DNA of 64,000 nucleotides. Origin: an uncultured Flavobacteriales bacterium. Its GTDB lineage: Bacteria > Bacteroidota > Bacteroidia > Flavobacteriales_E > Vicingaceae. The notes beneath the pieces were generated by a model. That model was not told the DNA's origin and ran no database searches. It saw only the letters and a list, made by a program, of their open reading frames with translations. The stretch is from positions 38,694 through 102,693 of the forward strand of contig CAJXMH010000003.1 of NCBI GenBank assembly GCA_913056345.1, read 5' to 3'. Made by a program: the position numbers and the translations under genes. This document shows positions 14,288 through 42,978 of this stretch, in pieces; the first letter of the stretch is position 1; each line of letters opens with the position of its first letter.

Positions 14288-14709
14288 TGAGTAGCATTAA
14301 AGAAAGACAAGAAGAGGTTGTAGAAGAGTTTTCCATGTTTGAAGACTGGATGGATAAATATGAATACCTCATTTCATTGGGTAAAGAATTACCCTTAATA
14401 GAAGAAAGTAAAAAGGTAGAAGAGAACATCATTAAAGGATGCCAGTCTAGAGTTTGGCTAGATGCTCAATTGCAAGATGGGAAAATATACTTTACAGCTG
14501 ACAGTGATGCCATTATTACAAAGGGAATCATAGCGCTAATGATAAGGGTGCTATCAGAAAGTTCACCCAAGGATATTGCTGAAACGGACTTACATTTTGT
14601 AGATGAAATTGGCTTAAAAGAGCATTTGTCTCCAACTCGTTCTAATGGATTGGTTAGTATGATCAAGAAAATGAAAACTTACGGAATTGCCTTTCAAGCT
14701 AAAGCTTAG
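14287..14709 (+). CDS. sufE: sulfur acceptor SufE
   Basis: 140 aa with the GCQSRVWL active-site Cys motif. Its ATG overlaps the sufS stop (TAATG). Confidence 0.9.
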   Translation: MSSIKERQEEVVEEFSMFEDWMDKYEYLISLGKELPLIEESKKVEENIIKGCQSRVWLDAQLQDGKIYFTADSDAIITKGIIALMIRVLSESSPKDIAETDLHFVDEIGLKEHLSPTRSNGLVSMIKKMKTYGIAFQAKA

Positions 14710-14712
14710 ATT

Positions 14713-15048
14713 ATGGAAAATAAAGATGCAAAACAGCTCAGTAAAAAAGATGTAGAAAACCAAGTAATCGAGGTTTTAAAAACCATCTATGATCCTGAGA
14801 TACCAGTTAATATATATGATCTTGGTTTGATTTATTTTGTAAGGGTTGATGATGAGCACAATGTTAAGATCGAAATGACATTGACTTCGCCTAATTGTCC
14901 TGTAGCAGAAAGCTTACCCAATGAAGTAGAGACTAAAGCAGCAGGTTGCTGGTGCGTGAAATCAGCGAAGGTAGAAATCGTATGGGATCCACCTTGGGGT
15001 AAGGAAATGATGAGTGAGGAGGCGATGTTGGAGCTCGGCTTCATGTAA
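14713..15048 (+). CDS. sufT: SUF-system Fe-S assembly protein, DUF59/SufT family
   Basis: 111 aa with DPEIPVNIYDLGLIY and LTSPNCP, which are DUF59 hallmarks. Confidence 0.85.
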   Translation: MENKDAKQLSKKDVENQVIEVLKTIYDPEIPVNIYDLGLIYFVRVDDEHNVKIEMTLTSPNCPVAESLPNEVETKAAGCWCVKSAKVEIVWDPPWGKEMMSEEAMLELGFM

Positions 15049-15218
15049 CCTCTGTTTATAAAGCTCAATAACTTTGTTATGCTTATTTTGTAAACTAGTG
15101 ACCTACGGGAGTAAGCTTCTAGCTTCCAAAATTTCGCAAGTTTCTTTCTCGAGCTCCCTAAGTCAGATATAGAGGTTTTGAAACTCTTTGTTTTGCTTGG
15201 ACATCGAGCTGAGTCGAG

Positions 15219-15767
15219 ATGCAAGCAAACAGAATTGAAAAGATTAACGCTATGGCAGAAGAAATTATAAACCGCGTGGCCAAAAGTGGCCTGATTACTT
15301 TAAACCTTGAAGAGTTTTACCCTGAAGGGGAAAGGATTTTGTACGACATCAAAGACAACCTTTGGGAAGGCATTGCTTTGAAAGAAAAAGATTTTCGTGC
15401 TTTTGTAAAAGAAAATGACTGGAGTCAATACGAGGGCAAATATGTGGCTTTGCATTGCTCGGTAGATGCCATAGTGCCTACTTGGGCTTACATGTTATTA
15501 GCCACTAAATTAGCTCCTTACGCTAAAAAAGTGTGCTTTGGCGATCTCGCTCAATTGGAAAGTTTGATTTTTGAAGAAGCTATTATCAAAAATGTGAATC
15601 CGGAAGAGTATAAAGATGCCAGACTAGTAATCAAAGGCTGCAGTGACAAAGAGGTGCCACCTTCAGCTTATGTTAAGCTTACTGAAATGCTCCAACCTTA
15701 CGCGAAAGTCTTAATGTATGGAGAGCCTTGCTCTACCGTGCCGCTTTATAAGAAGCCGAGGAAGTAG
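15219..15767 (+). CDS. DUF2480 family protein (Bacteroidota-specific, function unknown)
   Basis: 182 aa. The pattern SGLITLNLEEFYP..., KEKDFRAFVKENDW, DAIVPTWAYMLL matches my recollection of DUF2480, which commonly follows suf genes in Flavobacteriia. The true start may be the internal MAEEI. Confidence 0.7.
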   Translation: MQANRIEKINAMAEEIINRVAKSGLITLNLEEFYPEGERILYDIKDNLWEGIALKEKDFRAFVKENDWSQYEGKYVALHCSVDAIVPTWAYMLLATKLAPYAKKVCFGDLAQLESLIFEEAIIKNVNPEEYKDARLVIKGCSDKEVPPSAYVKLTEMLQPYAKVLMYGEPCSTVPLYKKPRK

Positions 15768-15769
15768 AT
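15713..15769 (+). repeat. copy A (functional) of the DUF2480 gene 3' end, including the stop codon
   Basis: aatgtatggagagccttgctctaccgtgccgctttataagaagccgaggaagtagat encodes ..MYGEPCSTVPLYKKPRK*. It is the reference for copies B and C. Confidence 0.9.
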
Positions 15770-15839
15770 GTGATATGATTACTTTATTTGCTCCTAGCTA
15801 TGATTCTAACAAATAAACAATGAGTATTAAATCTAATTG

Positions 15840-16253
15840 TTAATTCATATAGTAAGCTATATCTGGGAGTAAATAGTGTCTACTAAAACTTATTTTTAGA
15901 TAATATTGATTCAAGTGTTCTACAGTCCACCGTTGATCGTCAAGAAATAGAGTCTTATTATCATCTTCAAGCTTCCAAATTCCAAAGTGAGTGTCTTCAT
16001 CATCAGAATAGATGATATAGGTCCTGTCAGCATTAAAAATATACCTCTTATTTGAATTTACCGGATATACTGTTCCAAAAGTTTCATACTTGTAACAGTT
16101 CCAGTTTTTGGCAATTAAAAGCAAGCTTCCTTCTAAGTTAGAGAGATCAATAGGATTGTTGAGTGAGGGGTCATATTTTTCTTCTTCTTTTGAACAAGCA
16201 ATTATCAAAAGAATCAAAAAAAGAAATGGAAAGCTTGTAAGGTTTATTTTCAT
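15840..16253 (-). CDS. small lipoprotein, lipocalin-like domain (putative)
   Basis: 137 aa with signal peptide plus lipobox (LILLIIACSKEE). The GIWKLEDDNKTLFL..WTVEHL pattern is typical of lipocalin-like small lipoproteins. Confidence 0.6.
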   Translation of the reverse strand: MKINLTSFPFLFLILLIIACSKEEEKYDPSLNNPIDLSNLEGSLLLIAKNWNCYKYETFGTVYPVNSNKRYIFNADRTYIIYSDDEDTHFGIWKLEDDNKTLFLDDQRWTVEHLNQYYLKISFSRHYLLPDIAYYMN

Positions 16254-16368
16254 CTATAAAACTATGATAACGTACTAATTGCTTTGATACGCTATTCAAT
16301 TGATTAAGAAATGAAGATCTTTATTTGAGTCGAAATTAATAAAATTCTGTACAGCATGCCTTGGTGTT

Positions 16369-16425
16369 AATGTTTACGGAGCCTTGATCTACGGTGCTGC
16401 TCTATAAGAAGCCGAGGAAGTAGAT
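16369..16425 (+). repeat. copy B: decayed duplicate of the DUF2480 gene 3' end
   Basis: aatgtttacggagccttgatctacggtgctgctctataagaagccgaggaagtagat matches copy A at 49/57 positions ungapped by hand alignment, with the last 23 nt identical. In the copy-A frame it reads MFTEP*STVLLYKKPRK*, which has an internal stop. It ends 3 nt before the convergent mscS-family stop. Confidence 0.9.
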
Positions 16426-16428
16426 CAA

Positions 16429-17271
16429 TTACTTTTCCTTTTCGCCTCCCTGATAAACTGTCCTTCTCGGAATAGGGATTTTGATTCCTTCTTGATCTAA
16501 TTCTTTTTTTACTGCTTCTAGTTGTTCCCAAAACAAAGGCCAATACTCCGTTGACGGTACCCAACATCGAGCCATTATTTTCATATCGTATTCTCTTATT
16601 TCTTCTAACCTTACATCTACGTCTAAATGAGTGGCTACTTTAGGGTTTTTACTCAACGCTCTTACAATTACCTCGCGAAGCCTGTCCACATCTTCTTCAA
16701 AAGAGAATTTAAGCTCAAGGTCAATCCTGCGATACTTTTCAGCAGTGCGGTTGTCCACATCACTGTTTGAAACCCCTCCATTTGGCATGGTGATGATGCG
16801 GCCATCAAAGGTTTTTATACTAGTGTACAAAATGTCAATTTTCTGAACCTCACCTAGTTTCCCATTTACTTCAATCAAATCTCCCACTCTAAAAGGCTTG
16901 AATACCAAAATGAGAATTCCACCGGCAAAATTTGACAAACTGCCTTGCAAGGCCAAACCTACCGCAATACCGGCTGCCCCGAAAATGGCTAAGAAGGAAG
17001 TTGATTTTATTCCTAAGATCGATCCAACTGCAAAGAACAATAGTCCGTAAAGCAGGAAAATACTTAGGCTTTCAATAAAGGTTTTTAACGATAGCTCTAC
17101 CTTGGATTTTACTAACGCCCTTTTCAGCAGTCTCATTACGAACTTGATAATAAATACACCAAGGAAAAAGCAGATGACAGCATAAACGATATCAAGTCCA
17201 ATATCAAGTAGCAAAGTCTGAAGCTTAGACTTTAACTCTATCCAAAAATCTTGATCTATTTGTGTGGGCAT
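16429..17271 (-). CDS. mechanosensitive ion channel (MscS family)
   Basis: 280 aa with 3 N-terminal TM helices followed by FKPFRVGDLIEVNGKLGEVQKIDILYTSIKTFDGRIITMPNG, the MscS beta-domain signature. Confidence 0.88.
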   Translation of the reverse strand: MPTQIDQDFWIELKSKLQTLLLDIGLDIVYAVICFFLGVFIIKFVMRLLKRALVKSKVELSLKTFIESLSIFLLYGLLFFAVGSILGIKSTSFLAIFGAAGIAVGLALQGSLSNFAGGILILVFKPFRVGDLIEVNGKLGEVQKIDILYTSIKTFDGRIITMPNGGVSNSDVDNRTAEKYRRIDLELKFSFEEDVDRLREVIVRALSKNPKVATHLDVDVRLEEIREYDMKIMARCWVPSTEYWPLFWEQLEAVKKELDQEGIKIPIPRRTVYQGGEKEK

Positions 17272-17493
17272 TTCCGCTGAGAGGGTTAAAGGTTCAATGG
17301 TCTATCAGAAATCAATATTCTTTCAAAAGCTAACAAGATAGCAAAAATTGGCAGGAGAAGTTCAAATATCTTAGATTCAAGCATTCACCTTTACTTTAGT
17401 GTTTAACGGTAAAATCATAAAGCATTGGGCAAATCCTGCAAAAATGACGGCATTTAAATTTCATTAGGAATTAAGAATTTTCTAAAAATTAGA

Positions 17494-17537
17494 AATGTGG
17501 TATGGTGCCACTTTGTAAAAAGCCGAGGGGGTAAAAT
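17494..17537 (+). repeat. copy C: more decayed, internally deleted duplicate of the DUF2480 gene 3' end
   Basis: aatgtggtatggtgccactttgtaaaaagccgagggggtaaaat. Its core gtgccactttgtaaaaagccgagggggtaaaat matches copy A gtgccgctttataagaagccgaggaagtagat at 25/32 positions by hand alignment, and the aatgt head is retained. Confidence 0.75.
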
Positions 17538-17596
17538 TTTTAGTTTGAAGAAATGTGATTATAGTATCCGATACAATTATTTATAACAGATTGAGG

Positions 17597-18010
17597 TTAA
17601 AATAAAAGTAAGTTTCCCTTTTCTAAAATAGATTTGTTGACTGATATCTCTTTTCTAGTAAAAGATTGGACGAGAGATTGAAATTTGCACACGGTGAAGA
17701 CTAATAAGTTTTGACTTCTTTTGCTTTCTTCCTTCAAGTAAATGGAATTTTTATCAGTTTTACATATCTTCCAATCAAACATAGTGCTATTATGTTTAAT
17801 TGTTTCACCTAGTTTGAAGCCCAAAAGGTTTAGCCACTTTTCATCTAAAGTAATAAATTGAAACTTGCTGTTATCTATGACTATTTGATCCATATCACTA
17901 CCTTCAATAATCATCAATTTATTTAAATGGTATATTACTTTGTAAACTTTTTTGTTGCACTGAATCAATGCTCCTAGCATATTCAGCTTTTCATTTAAAC
18001 CTTCATTCAT
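17597..18010 (-). CDS. hypothetical protein (ORFan, AT-rich)
   Basis: 137-aa ORF with no competing ORF and no motif I recognise. Confidence 0.5.
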   Translation of the reverse strand: MNEGLNEKLNMLGALIQCNKKVYKVIYHLNKLMIIEGSDMDQIVIDNSKFQFITLDEKWLNLLGFKLGETIKHNSTMFDWKICKTDKNSIYLKEESKRSQNLLVFTVCKFQSLVQSFTRKEISVNKSILEKGNLLLF

Positions 18011-18138: not shown

Positions 18139-18798
18139 TCACTTCTTTAATGTTTTTATGCTCCAAACCGAAAAAATTAAGATATATCTTACAGGAAAGG
18201 CAATTAAAATGAGTGTAATGAATGTGAGTTTAGTTTTGTGATAAATTTCTTTCTCACTAAGCTCGTCTTTTTCTTTGTAAAGGTCTGCTAGTTTGGGACT
18301 AATTCTTTTTCGCTGAGCCTTCTTTTTTCTTATTATTTTAAGATTTTCTGCATCTGACTTCGTAAATAAATTTTTGTTAATGAAAGACTTGAAATCTAAC
18401 CAATTGTAAAAGCCAAGTTCATTAAGCTTTTCTATTTGTTTTTGCGTCCATTTATAATTCCAGTAATGAGCTAAGCTGTCTGAATTGTTTAGTGATTTTA
18501 AATTTTTATTCCAAAACTCATCACTGGATTCATACTGATCTACAGCAAATAGTGATTTATATCTTTCATAAAATTGATTTCGGACAAGACTTTTCTTTTT
18601 TAGAGGCTCATTCAATAATTGAATCTCGTTTCGAAGTTCAGTATAGTGGTTAGAAGATTGCTGAATCTGATAATCTAATATTGAACTGTAACCAACAATA
18701 GCTAAATAAGTTAATATGGTCAAGATGCAACAGCCCAATAGAAACAAAAACTCTCTAGCAATTATTTTTTTAGTGTGTAGTTTCATATACAAATGCAA
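18139..18798 (-). CDS. hypothetical membrane protein (N- and C-terminal TM helices)
   Basis: 219-aa ORF with hydrophobic segments FLFLLGCCILTILTYLAIVGY and LTFITLILIAFPVRYILIFSVW flanking a ~150-aa K/N-rich region. The start may be the MKLHT at 18786. Confidence 0.55.
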   Translation of the reverse strand: MHLYMKLHTKKIIAREFLFLLGCCILTILTYLAIVGYSSILDYQIQQSSNHYTELRNEIQLLNEPLKKKSLVRNQFYERYKSLFAVDQYESSDEFWNKNLKSLNNSDSLAHYWNYKWTQKQIEKLNELGFYNWLDFKSFINKNLFTKSDAENLKIIRKKKAQRKRISPKLADLYKEKDELSEKEIYHKTKLTFITLILIAFPVRYILIFSVWSIKTLKK

Positions 18799-18932
18799 AA
18801 AGTACTAAATATCTAAATATATATAGAATTGTAGCTTTTTACTTCATAAAAGCTAAATCAACTTATATTTTACAATTGCTCTGGACTGACTTTCAGGGAA
18901 GAGACCTGCGGCAGAATGATGTTCATAAAAGG

Positions 18933-18966
18933 CAAAAAAAAGAGCCAAGTATTAAACTTGACTCTT
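18933..18966 (-). terminator. rho-independent terminator downstream of tRNA-Phe
   Basis: On the minus strand the stem is AAGAGTCAAG/CTTGGCTCTT (10 bp with one G.U), the loop is 7 nt, and a T8 run follows. It begins 6 nt after the tRNA 3' end. Confidence 0.8.
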
Positions 18967-18972
18967 AAAAGG

Positions 18973-19045
18973 TGGTGCCAGCTGGAATCGAACCAGCGAC
19001 ACAAGGATTTTCAGTCCTTTGCTCTACCAACTGAGCTATGGCACC
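18973..19045 (-). tRNA. tRNA-Phe (GAA)
   Basis: The reverse complement GGTGCCATAGCTCAGTTGGTAGAGCAAAGGACTGAAAATCCTTGTGTCGCTGGTTCGATTCCAGCTGGCACCA folds as a canonical cloverleaf. The acceptor is GGTGCCA/TGGCACC, the anticodon stem is AAGGA/TCCTT with loop CTGAAAA, and the T arm is GCTGG-TTCGATT-CCAGC. CCA is not encoded. Confidence 0.97.
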
Positions 19046-31622: not shown

Positions 31623-32762
31623 TTAAACAAGTTGATATTGCTTGCCCGGTAGACTTTTAACTACTCCTTTGAATTCAAGATTGAGTAATAAACTTGCAGT
31701 TTTACTCATTGGCATTTGTGCTAACAAGCTTAGTTCATCAATGGGCAACAGGTCTTTGCCTTCAAACGCCTTGATGATTTTTTCCTCTTCGTCATTTAGT
31801 TCAACGAAAAGTTGTCTTTGGGTTGAATTTTGTTTTTTAGCTTTTGATTCAAGCTCCCAGCCTAGGATGTATTCTAAATCTTTAACGGATTCTATCAAAG
31901 CAGCTTTGTTGGCCTTGATTAGCTTATTACAACCTTCAGATTGGCTATCGTCTACCCTGCCGGGAACAGCGAAAACGTCACGGTTGTAGCCATTGGCAAG
32001 GTCGGCTGTGATCAAAGAGCCTCCTTTGGCTGAAGATTCAACCACTACAACTGCTTCAGATAGGCCTGCTACAATGCGGTTACGCTCAGCAAAATTGGAG
32101 GGAAGGAGTTTGGTTTTGCTATGGTAATCTGAAGCAATACCTCCATTGAGTTGCATTTTTTCTGCATATTTAAAGTGAGGCTTTGGGTAAACTTCATCAA
32201 GACCAGAAGCTAGGATTCCGATGGTTGGCAAACCTGCCTCCATTGCTGCTTTATGGGCTGTAATGTCTATTCCATAGGCAAGCCCGCTTACAATGGTAGC
32301 GCCGTGTGGCTTTAGGTCGCGAATCATTTGCTCGCAAATGGCTTTTCCTTTTACGGTTGCCTTTCGAGTTCCAACAAAGCTGATCATTTTGGATGCATTC
32401 CAATCAACTTTTCCCTTACTGTATAGGATGATCGGTCCATCATCGCAATGTAGCAAGCGTTGCGGGTAATCTTTGTCGAGAAAAAAAGTAGCGTTAATGT
32501 TTTCCTTTTCCAGAAAAGCCACTTCCTCCTCAGCTCTGCCTAAAACATCTGCCTGCAAAACTTTGCTAACAGCTTTTTCGCCCAAGCCGGGGATCTTCAA
32601 TAGTTCAGCCTTTTTGCTTTTAAAAACAGCTTCGGCACCACCACAATAGGCTACTAATTTTTTAGCACCTTGGTGGCCAATTCCCGGTATTAAACTTAGT
32701 CCAATTTGATAGATCAATGCACTCAACTGAAAGTCGTAAAGTTTTAATTTATATTTGGTCAA
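31623..32762 (-). CDS. dprA: DNA-processing protein DprA (Smf)
   Basis: GLAYGIDITAHKAA, AERNRIVAGLS, VVVESSAKGGSLITA and a C-terminal wHTH-like tail. The track ORF runs to ATG 32858, but that would overlap the kdsB start and promoter by about 100 nt, so I place the start at TTG 32762 (LTKYKLKLYDFQ...). The start is uncertain. Confidence 0.85.
   Translation of the reverse strand: MTKYKLKLYDFQLSALIYQIGLSLIPGIGHQGAKKLVAYCGGAEAVFKSKKAELLKIPGLGEKAVSKVLQADVLGRAEEEVAFLEKENINATFFLDKDYPQRLLHCDDGPIILYSKGKVDWNASKMISFVGTRKATVKGKAICEQMIRDLKPHGATIVSGLAYGIDITAHKAAMEAGLPTIGILASGLDEVYPKPHFKYAEKMQLNGGIASDYHSKTKLLPSNFAERNRIVAGLSEAVVVVESSAKGGSLITADLANGYNRDVFAVPGRVDDSQSEGCNKLIKANKAALIESVKDLEYILGWELESKAKKQNSTQRQLFVELNDEEEKIIKAFEGKDLLPIDELSLLAQMPMSKTASLLLNLEFKGVVKSLPGKQYQLV
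32750..32757 (+). promoter_or_regulatory. -7 promoter box (TAnnTTTG) for kdsB
   Basis: TATATTTG lies 15 nt upstream of ATG 32773. Confidence 0.35.
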
Positions 32763-32772
32763 AAGTATTAAT

Positions 32773-33519
32773 ATGCGATCAATAGGAGTAATACCTGCCC
32801 GATATGGTTCAACTAGATTGCCCGGTAAACCGCTAGCCTTAATACATGGAAAGCCCATGATTCAAAGGGTTTATGAGCAATGTAAGCAGTCTACTGCCCT
32901 AAGCGAAGTAGTAGTAGCCACAGATGATGAACGGATTTTAGAGGCGGTTGAACATTTTGGTGGACGTGCAGTGATGACCAGCCCTGATCACCAAAGTGGC
33001 ACGGATCGTTGTTTGGAAGCATACCAAAAAATTGATGAGGAGTTCGACATTGTTGTAAATATACAAGGTGATGAACCCTTTATTTCTCCATCTCAAATTG
33101 ACTTGATCTTAAGTTGTTTTCAATACGAAAATACAGAGATCGCAACTCTGGTTAAATTGATTGATCAAGAGTCTGAGCTTTTTAACCCATCGAAACCAAA
33201 GGTGCTGTTGGATGAAAATGATTTTGCCATTTACTTCAGTCGGCAATGCATTCCTTATTTAAGAGATTATGAAAAAGAAGCATGGCTTGAGGCTTTTAAT
33301 TTTTACAAGCACATTGGTATGTATGCTTTTCGGGCAGGAACTTTGGCTGAATTGTGCGCCCTTCAACCAAGTAGATTAGAAAAAGCAGAAGGTTTAGAAC
33401 AGCTCAGATGGATAGAACATGCTTATAAAATTCGAGTAGCGATTACGGAAGAAGAAGCCTTTTCTGTGGACACACAGGAAGACTTAGATGAGATAAATAG
33501 CAACGAACTCCGGAGTTAA
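32773..33519 (+). CDS. kdsB: 3-deoxy-manno-octulosonate cytidylyltransferase (CMP-KDO synthetase)
   Basis: The protein has the motifs GVIPARYGSTRLPGKPL, NIQGDEPF and EQLRWIE. Start ATG 32773 (MRSIGVIPARY) is preferred over the in-frame TTG at 32755. Confidence 0.93.
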   Translation: MRSIGVIPARYGSTRLPGKPLALIHGKPMIQRVYEQCKQSTALSEVVVATDDERILEAVEHFGGRAVMTSPDHQSGTDRCLEAYQKIDEEFDIVVNIQGDEPFISPSQIDLILSCFQYENTEIATLVKLIDQESELFNPSKPKVLLDENDFAIYFSRQCIPYLRDYEKEAWLEAFNFYKHIGMYAFRAGTLAELCALQPSRLEKAEGLEQLRWIEHAYKIRVAITEEEAFSVDTQEDLDEINSNELRS

Positions 33520-42731: not shown

Positions 42732-42818
42732 GGAGAGGTGGCCGAGTGGCTTAAGGCGCACGCTTGGAAAGCGTGTATGCGGGAAACCGTATCGGGGGTT
42801 CGAATCCCTTCCTCTCCG
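42732..42818 (+). tRNA. tRNA-Ser (GGA), class II with long variable arm
   Basis: GGAGAGGTGGCCGAGTGGCTTAAGGCGCACGCTTGGAAAGCGTGTATGCGGGAAACCGTATCGGGGGTTCGAATCCCTTCCTCTCCG. The acceptor is GGAGAGG/CCTCTCC and the anticodon stem is CACGC/GCGTG with loop TTGGAAA. The variable arm is ATGCGG-gaaa-CCGTAT. The T stem GGGGG/CCCTT needs two G.U pairs. CCA is not encoded. Confidence 0.88.
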
Positions 42819-42857
42819 CAACGATAGGTAAATATTAATCGAGAAGTTCTTTTTAGG
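42811..42857 (+). repeat. att-like direct repeat, copy 1 (last 8 nt of tRNA-Ser plus 39 nt downstream)
   Basis: cctctccgcaacgataggtaaatattaatcgagaagttctttttagg. Confidence 0.85.
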
Positions 42858-42932
42858 ATTGAAGTAAAAACTATTGATTCGGACCACCGATAGGGGGTGA
42901 GAGTCGCTACCCGACTGAATAGGCGCGGCCTG

Positions 42933-42978
42933 CCTCTCCGCAACAATAGGTAAATACTTAATGAAATGTTCTTTTAAG
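42933..42978 (+). repeat. att-like direct repeat, copy 2
   Basis: cctctccgcaacaataggtaaatacttaatgaaatgttcttttaag starts 122 nt after copy 1. The first 24 nt match at 23/24, and overall identity by eye is roughly 85% with two 1-nt indels. Confidence 0.85.

Follow-up and report, generated by a model that had tools for sequence, protein, structure and literature searches.

Repeated insertion of one-gene cassettes at the 3' end of a DUF2480 gene in uncultured Vicingaceae

How does the end of a single housekeeping gene come to stand three times in a row, each time with a different gene beyond it? The question is raised by a 64,000-nt stretch of DNA (hereafter the window) from an uncultured Flavobacteriales bacterium that falls within the Vicingaceae (NCBI GenBank assembly GCA_913056345.1, contig CAJXMH010000003.1, positions 38,694–102,693 of the forward strand). 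Here the last gene of a suf cluster, encoding a DUF2480 protein, is followed by four minus-strand open reading frames (ORFs) in the order DUF2480(A)-lipoprotein-B-MscS-C-ORF137/ORF219-tRNA-Phe, where A is the live end of the DUF2480 gene and B and C are decayed copies of that end, which we call relics. Cassettes were inserted serially at this one spot with duplication of the gene end; an empty site exists among relatives, the insertions are polymorphic between them, one cassette moved horizontally together with its relic, and recombination breakpoints lie inside DUF2480. That serial insertion restored the gene end each time, as the original prediction had proposed from the window alone, is in our judgment very probable.

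Three copies of one gene end

The repeats on which the original prediction was built were all recovered. The gene end at 15713–15769 recurs at 16369–16425 with 49 of 57 positions matching, an in-frame stop and an identical final 23 nt (TATAAGAAGCCGAGGAAGTAGAT); our repeat search widened this pair to 62 nt (15708–15769 and 16364–16425) at 85% identity. All nine mismatches between A and B fall in the 39 nt upstream of the 23-nt block (P = 0.010), and copy B, translated in the frame of the gene, reads LMFTEP*STVLLYKKPRK*. The shorter copy C, with a core match of 25/32, reads VPLCKKPRG*, and the repeat search delimits it as 17505–17533 (83% of 29 nt). The inserts measure 599 nt (A to B) and 1068 nt (B to C), and the MscS stop codon (16429–16431) lies 3 nt from copy B, as had been described. 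The features of the locus are as follows.

15219–15767, plus strand: DUF2480, the live gene (Pfam PF10652, E 2.3e-74), last gene of the suf cluster
15708–15769, plus strand: copy A, the live DUF2480 end with 2 nt past its TAG stop (repeat search)
15747–15769, plus strand: 23-nt block, the same in A and B, a candidate recombination core
15770–16363, minus strand: cassette 1, with the 137-aa lipoprotein-like ORF (15840–16253), a 70-nt 3' flank and a 110-nt upstream region
16364–16425, plus strand: copy B, relic DUF2480 end interrupted by an in-frame TGA (profile alignment begins at 16355)
16426 to about 17495: cassette 2 with its upstream region
16429–17271, minus strand: gene of cassette 2, encoding a channel of the MscS family (Pfam MS_channel_2nd, E 9.6e-20; three other MscS domains also matched)
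17496–17533, plus strand: copy C, an older relic ending in VPLCKKPRG* with TAA (nhmmer; 25/32 match)
17597–18010, minus strand: ORF137, of no known family, its stop 63 nt from C; together with ORF219 the innermost cassette
18139–18798, minus strand: ORF219, of no known family, species-specific among the loci examined
18889–18970: conserved right edge of the variable region, a spacer with a terminator-like hairpin (18940–18966)
18971–19045, minus strand: tRNA-Phe (GAA), from ARAGORN and Rfam (tRNA, 76.5 bits), its 3' end toward the array

Older relics were found by a family profile only, and were missed by single-sequence nhmmer and by a strict Smith-Waterman threshold. The profile (nhmmer), built from the last 90 nt of DUF2480 in 23 Vicingaceae loci, matched B at E 6e-10 and C at E 3e-4 in a scan of ~420 kb, window included, and found no further match there; in a wider scan of 90 DUF2480 loci (1.32 Mb), C was matched at E 1e-3. 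A candidate fourth relic near 18843–18870, just before the conserved spacer, was suggestive in position, but its match was not significant and it was rejected. A weak profile match about 262 nt upstream of the DUF2480 stop recurs in many relatives (among them loci L062, L014, and L008; E about 0.7–40) and hints at an ancient internal repeat in the protein.

Two explanations, that the 57–62-nt segment is a dispersed repeat of the REP (repetitive extragenic palindromic) or MITE (miniature inverted-repeat transposable element) kind, or that the array is an artefact of metagenome assembly, strike us as barely credible, and we found no point in favor of either. Dispersal, which the original prediction had itself raised as an alternative, was not seen: with up to three mismatches allowed, the 23-mer occurs in the 64 kb only at A and B (0 expected from shuffles), and profile matches in the 1.32 Mb of relatives are confined to the orthologous islet. 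Unlike REP or MITE elements, then, the copies do not sit at many unrelated sites; they are homologous to coding sequence and their decay is consistent with the reading frame. Four independent contigs, one from ENA (ERZ27241903) and three from JGI samples (3300000418, 3300000425, 3300000371), match the window with 100% identity along as much as 20.5 kb, so the array is not an assembly artefact. In one of these samples (3300000425, contigs L002 and L180) the assembly is broken at 16689–17705, stopping inside MscS and restarting inside ORF137, and the gap removes the 5' part of MscS, relic C, and the 3' part of ORF137; low coverage, or a population that is heterogeneous at the array, may be the cause.

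The array, from 15770 to about 18888, is a small flexible islet at the convergent junction of the DUF2480 and tRNA-Phe 3' ends, the second of which had no part in the original prediction. On its left the synteny sufBCDS-sufE-FeS_assembly_P-DUF2480 is kept in all relatives, where DUF2480 starts at an ATG corresponding to 15252 (171 aa); on its right the spacer and hairpin, directly 3' of tRNA-Phe, are common to relatives L164 and L168. Every relic stands directly 3' of the next minus-strand gene (3 nt for B and MscS, 63 nt for C and ORF137), and the cassettes carry their own upstream regions of 110–230 nt. The 137-aa ORF of cassette 1 had been labeled lipocalin-like, a label that did not hold, as the ORF has no Pfam match; its translation shows a signal peptide with a lipobox-like LIIAC, and we therefore call it lipoprotein-like. 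ORF137 has no homologue in any related locus. We also considered tRNA-Phe as the true target and rejected it, because no tRNA-Phe fragment was found anywhere in the window.

The same junction in related genomes

The relatives considered here (L158, L164, L167, L168, and others) are members of a 90%-identity protein cluster. Across the 90 DUF2480 loci, relics occur only in the window, L158, and L164–166. L168 has the empty site, in which the DUF2480 stop is followed by about 60 nt, the terminator hairpin, and tRNA-Phe. In L164, DUF2480 is followed by an AAA-ATPase gene, one relic (a duplication from −54 to +9, whose score was reached by 0 of 200 shuffles), the spacer, and tRNA-Phe, and L158 has DUF2480, the ATPase gene, a relic A', the lipoprotein cassette of the window, and a relic B'. 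Other genes occupy the position directly after DUF2480 in L167 (yet another gene) and in L159, L006, and L059 (DUF3332). Most telling is L005, in which an orthologue of MscS (80% amino acid identity) lies 4 nt past the live DUF2480 stop: in the window, copy B abuts the MscS stop with this same junction, and we conclude that copy B is a former live gene end. Presence and absence of cassettes across L168, L164, L158, and L005 thus agree with repeated insertion at one spot as originally predicted, and the alternative of one fixed arrangement shared by all relatives is contradicted by this polymorphism. A lookup of identical FeS_assembly_P and CoaX proteins for more arrangements within the species yielded nothing new, and sliding windows along the L158 gene end gave no signal of donors of the L007/L060 type.

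The lipoprotein cassette was caught moving between species. Its ORF has a single homologue, P0002 in L158 (82% amino acid identity), in the same junction context. Core genes of the window and L158 are only 52–65% identical at third codon positions and 39–57% at four-fold sites, which is saturation, whereas the lipoprotein genes are 86% and 81% identical at these sites and their non-coding flanks 88–90%; moreover, the cassette is missing from L164 and L168, although both are nearer relatives of L158 than the window is. Because of this disparity in third-codon identity and the absence of the cassette from L164 and L168, we conclude that it was transferred horizontally long after the hosts split. 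Relics B and B' share the same left junction and a derived ACGGAG, so the left part of relic B moved with the cassette. As to the ORF itself, identity to the L158 homologue is 92.7, 90.5, and 86.1% at the three codon positions, and this near-equal divergence suggests weak constraint or diversifying selection.

The ATPase cassettes of L158 and L164 are 87.7% identical, compared with 82–87% for core genes, and by this measure look vertically inherited. The younger lipoprotein cassette of L158 therefore lies beyond an older one, so that a relic, too, can be an entry point. The original prediction held that each event restores the gene end and pushes older relics outward; the relatives support this, except that the order is not strictly chronological in L158. 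For cassette 2, the MscS genes of the window and L005 are saturated (41%) while relic C is still recognizable, from which we infer that MscS reached the window from a third lineage well after the window and L005 had split. Relic C would have been created when MscS arrived.

The newest cassette in the relatives encodes a 470-aa AAA ATPase (PF01637 plus DUF234) from a family that is very large in Bacteroidota (7874 matches at E ≤ 1e-80, many on 1.6–3-kb contigs). In three unrelated contexts the gene is bracketed by a ~50-nt palindrome, TTATAAYYCGCCAAAA-N11-19-TTTTGGCGRRWTATAA (L164, 10524–10582 and 12003–12057; L169, 3941–3993 and 5414–5466; L172, 3934–3990 and 5411–5467), one copy ending 8–10 nt before the ATG and the other beginning immediately past the stop. 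Within one genome the pair is nearly identical; pairs of different genomes differ, and the motif is absent from the rest of ~2 Mb of loci; ATPase and palindromes could be a one-gene mobile unit, or the palindromes could be co-evolving operator sites of the DUF234 domain. That the ATPase element itself makes the gene-end duplications was considered and rejected, since the ATPase copies in L169 and L172 lack the flank duplication present in L164.

Might the copies instead be the remains of a few unrelated illegitimate insertions, with no recurrent mechanism, that persist because they serve the convergent neighbors as 3' untranslated region or terminator? With its stop only 3–5 nt from the gene end, MscS must have a terminator that overlaps DUF2480 sequence, and in relic B the last 23 nt are unchanged and a perfect 9-bp inverted repeat is present. 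This repeat (16384–16392 and 16420–16428, TTGATCTAC ... GTAGATCAA) arose from a TGC-to-TGA change plus the junction to the MscS stop, and might be a 3' hairpin for MscS, but it folds no better than shuffled sequence. Set against such a function, all three copies, on both strands, folded no better than shuffles (z −1.3 to +1.3, with −0.03 to −1.3 for the folds weighed against a terminator role), a terminator scan gave nothing at A, B, or C, and Rfam returned tRNA only and no family at the repeats. B and B' are about 81% identical and thus no better kept than the neutral flanks of the cassette. Taken as a whole, the relics are therefore not under purifying selection, a possibility that had been raised with the original prediction. 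Furthermore, the lipoprotein cassette passed from species to species as one unit with its relic, and at least three independent events struck this one site, compared with two unrelated cases in a small general survey of gene-end-anchored duplications (163 loci, 2.0 Mb). We accordingly consider chance insertion with functional retention improbable.

Joining cassettes at the gene end

Each event leaves 38–69 nt of the old gene end joined to the old neighbor, and its boundaries vary, on the left between −69, −56, and −38 and on the right between +2 in the window and about +9 in L164. The cassettes travel with a gene-end arm, and the joints fall within the last 15–23 nt, as indicated by the confinement of the A/B mismatches to the sequence upstream of the 23-nt block and by relic A' of L158, which is a hybrid: its left part is that of the L164 relic (CATGAAG), and its right junction (TAGAT followed by GTGATAT) is that of copy A in the window.

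The route we favor, while holding it tentatively, is recombination anchored in the DUF2480 end with no dedicated recombinase. Incoming DNA would carry its own copy of the last 40–70 nt of DUF2480, joined to a different downstream gene, and would be spliced in by recombination within or near the terminal 15–25 nt of DUF2480; the live gene would keep an intact end and the resident end would be stranded as a non-coding relic on its old neighbor. Repeated rounds would build the array from DUF2480(A) through B and C to tRNA-Phe. The process could be general homologous recombination with its anchor in suf/DUF2480 or a relic. A second join, illegitimate or over short homology, would complete it (homology-facilitated illegitimate recombination, HFIR), or else a circle that had looped out between two copies of the gene end would integrate in the Campbell manner. 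Once relics are present, each cassette would be flanked by portable homology and could move to any relative with the same gene end. The enzyme would be of RecA type, and the incoming DNA either circular or linear. A selective filter probably contributes, in that survivors retain the DUF2480 end as well as the 3' end of the abutting convergent neighbor: because that neighbor stops 3–5 nt from the DUF2480 stop, an insertion keeping both ends must duplicate the overlap. Such a filter would help recombinase-free and site-specific models alike.

Several points count in favor of recombination without a dedicated enzyme. Pfam searches of the four cassette ORFs, and of 20 candidate ORFs from the window (housekeeping families or none), gave no recombinase match, in keeping with the original prediction, and no recombinase was called next to DUF2480 in those relatives whose DUF2480 neighbors carry Pfam annotation. 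The duplication boundaries are variable, the copies have neither structure nor an Rfam family, and models of the same geometry have been published. Finally, there are breakpoints inside DUF2480: the window and L167 are near-identical over 14350–15611, have 17 differences in 15612–15722, agree at every one of the last 44 nt, and are unrelated past the stop, a mosaic that places breakpoints at about 15611 and 15722 in the 3' third of the gene. Recombination in DUF2480 does happen, then, which does not imply that cassettes are delivered by it. The near-identical tract of ~1.25 kb covers sufE, FeS_assembly_P, and the 5' two-thirds of DUF2480, with strong divergence on either side (sufS to the left, the DUF2480 3' third to the right), and seems to have been imported recently, by homologous recombination, between lineages that are otherwise distinct.

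Other observations weigh against this route. The available homology amounts to 23 identical nt within 62 nt at 85%, and stretches so short and imperfect are a poor substrate for RecA. Gene-end-anchored duplications are as rare as the survey indicates, and with at least three independent events here a specific site fits better than generic illegitimate recombination. The mismatch-free 23 nt, together with the retention in every relic lineage of AAGCCGAGG, a part of that block, look like a conserved crossover core. The younger cassette of L158 sits at a relic, where about 15 nt link both parts. The recombinase scan of the host covers 64 kb, and an enzyme could be encoded elsewhere. The sole evidence of competence is a gene for DprA (DNA_processg_A; window 31623–32858, minus strand), a recombination mediator of natural transformation; as the gene is widespread, it supports DNA uptake here weakly.

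Several of these observations suit an alternative that we take seriously while thinking it rather doubtful, namely that the last ~23 nt of DUF2480 are the attB of a site-specific recombinase acting in trans, whose gene would lie in another part of the genome or on a helper element. The units would then be integrase-less mobilizable cassettes, or the eroded cargo of larger islands, whose attP mimics the gene end and would contain AAGCCGAGGAAGTAG; an excised circle would have the left part of B joined through one core to GTGATATGATTAC, and serial integration would push older units toward tRNA-Phe, as in tycheposon-like accretion at tRNA islands. Every unit stands between direct repeats of the target 3' end, empty and occupied sites both exist, and two species with saturated synonymous sites carry the same cassette with identical junctions. 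The relic insertion in L158 needs the core alone, the homology is short, the site is a true hot spot, and the island adjoins a tRNA 3' end; a second 3'-end duplication, at tRNA-Ser, lies within the same window, and the accretion logic is that described for tycheposons (bioRxiv 10.1101/2020.12.28.424599). Telling against a trans-acting enzyme is that neither an integrase or transposase nor a fragment of one appears in the cassettes, the 20 window ORFs, or the Pfam-annotated DUF2480 neighbors of relatives. The extent of the duplication varies between events on both sides, and 22 other Vicingaceae loci with near-identical gene ends have no relic in the 8–10 kb downstream, where contigs reach. The 69 exact core matches in IMG/VR contigs are at chance level and none extends into the gene-end profile, no viral carrier of the lipoprotein cassette was found by protein or by flank, and the core has no inverted-repeat architecture.

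The duplication at tRNA-Ser(GGA) (42732–42819) comprises the last 13 nt of the gene and 37 nt downstream, which recur 122 nt on at 82–86% identity (42807–42856 and 42929–42978), the second copy preceded by a degenerate acceptor-stem-like fragment. It is possibly the footprint of an element that integrated and was then deleted.

There is also a bolder reading, which we consider unlikely. The terminal ~23 nt of DUF2480 would be a true recombination site, used again and again by one-gene cassettes that lack an integrase and pass among species of Vicingaceae; cassettes with a decayed gene-end arm would enter at the live gene or at any relic, in an integron-like capture that uses neither IntI nor attC and depends on RecA or on a host recombinase acting in trans.

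Known systems and significance

The locus works like Rhs/type VI secretion system (T6SS) displacement and like accretion at tRNA att sites, and is a member of neither class. In Rhs C-terminal displacement (Jackson et al. 2009, PMC2935791) and in the T6SS effector-immunity arrays of Vibrio cholerae (Kirchberger et al. 2017, PMC5361080), the mechanisms proposed are homologous recombination via a circular core-fragment intermediate or HFIR. The arrangement here is similar in that an intact gene is followed by 3'-part fragments of variable length, each on its displaced module, with the newest module adjoining the intact gene, modules exchanged horizontally, no dedicated recombinase, and evidence of homologous recombination in the anchoring gene (here, the mosaic of the window and L167). 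It differs in that the duplicated piece is 38–69 nt of the extreme 3' end, with stop codon, of a housekeeping gene in a suf cluster, and in that the modules are independent convergent genes (lipoprotein-like, MscS, AAA ATPase, and unknowns) with no toxin or immunity content.

In the tycheposons of Prochlorococcus, successive integrations at one site push older elements further in (bioRxiv 10.1101/2020.12.28.424599). The locus shares with those islands the direct repeats of the target 3' end around units (A/B/C in the window; the live end, A', and B' in L158), partial target copies scattered through the island, a marine genome, and an adjoining tRNA gene. Unlike them, it has repeats derived from the end of protein-coding DUF2480 rather than from tRNA-Phe, single-gene units of 0.6–1.5 kb, and no visible integrase or hallmark gene, whole or fragmentary. 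The array also resembles an integron in its single-gene units of one orientation, with a repeat after each and entry at one end; it differs from integrons in that no IntI or attI was found, in repeats that are homologous to coding sequence and form no attC-like hairpin, and in cassettes with their own upstream regions. Replacement of a gene end is familiar from prophage e14 and phage 21 in E. coli icd, where the element brings a replacement 3' end that keeps the gene intact, and what remains of the original end is a pseudo-fragment at the far junction. Each of those is a single integrase-encoding prophage of many kilobases, unlike the array of integrase-less one-gene units with several relics described here.

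What is new is the combination of the extreme 3' end of a housekeeping gene as a reusable joint, one-gene convergent cassettes, and no recombinase found, along with direct evidence for the passage of a cassette, relic arm included, from one species to another. The flexible genes of abundant uncultured marine bacteria often lie in hot spots without recognizable mobile elements. The history of this locus can be read from an empty site, three or four dated relics, and a cassette caught moving between species, which makes the question of a recombinase versus plain homologous recombination testable at one short defined sequence. If the recombinase-free route is true, gene-end relics would be a general, searchable footprint of single-gene addition beside core genes.

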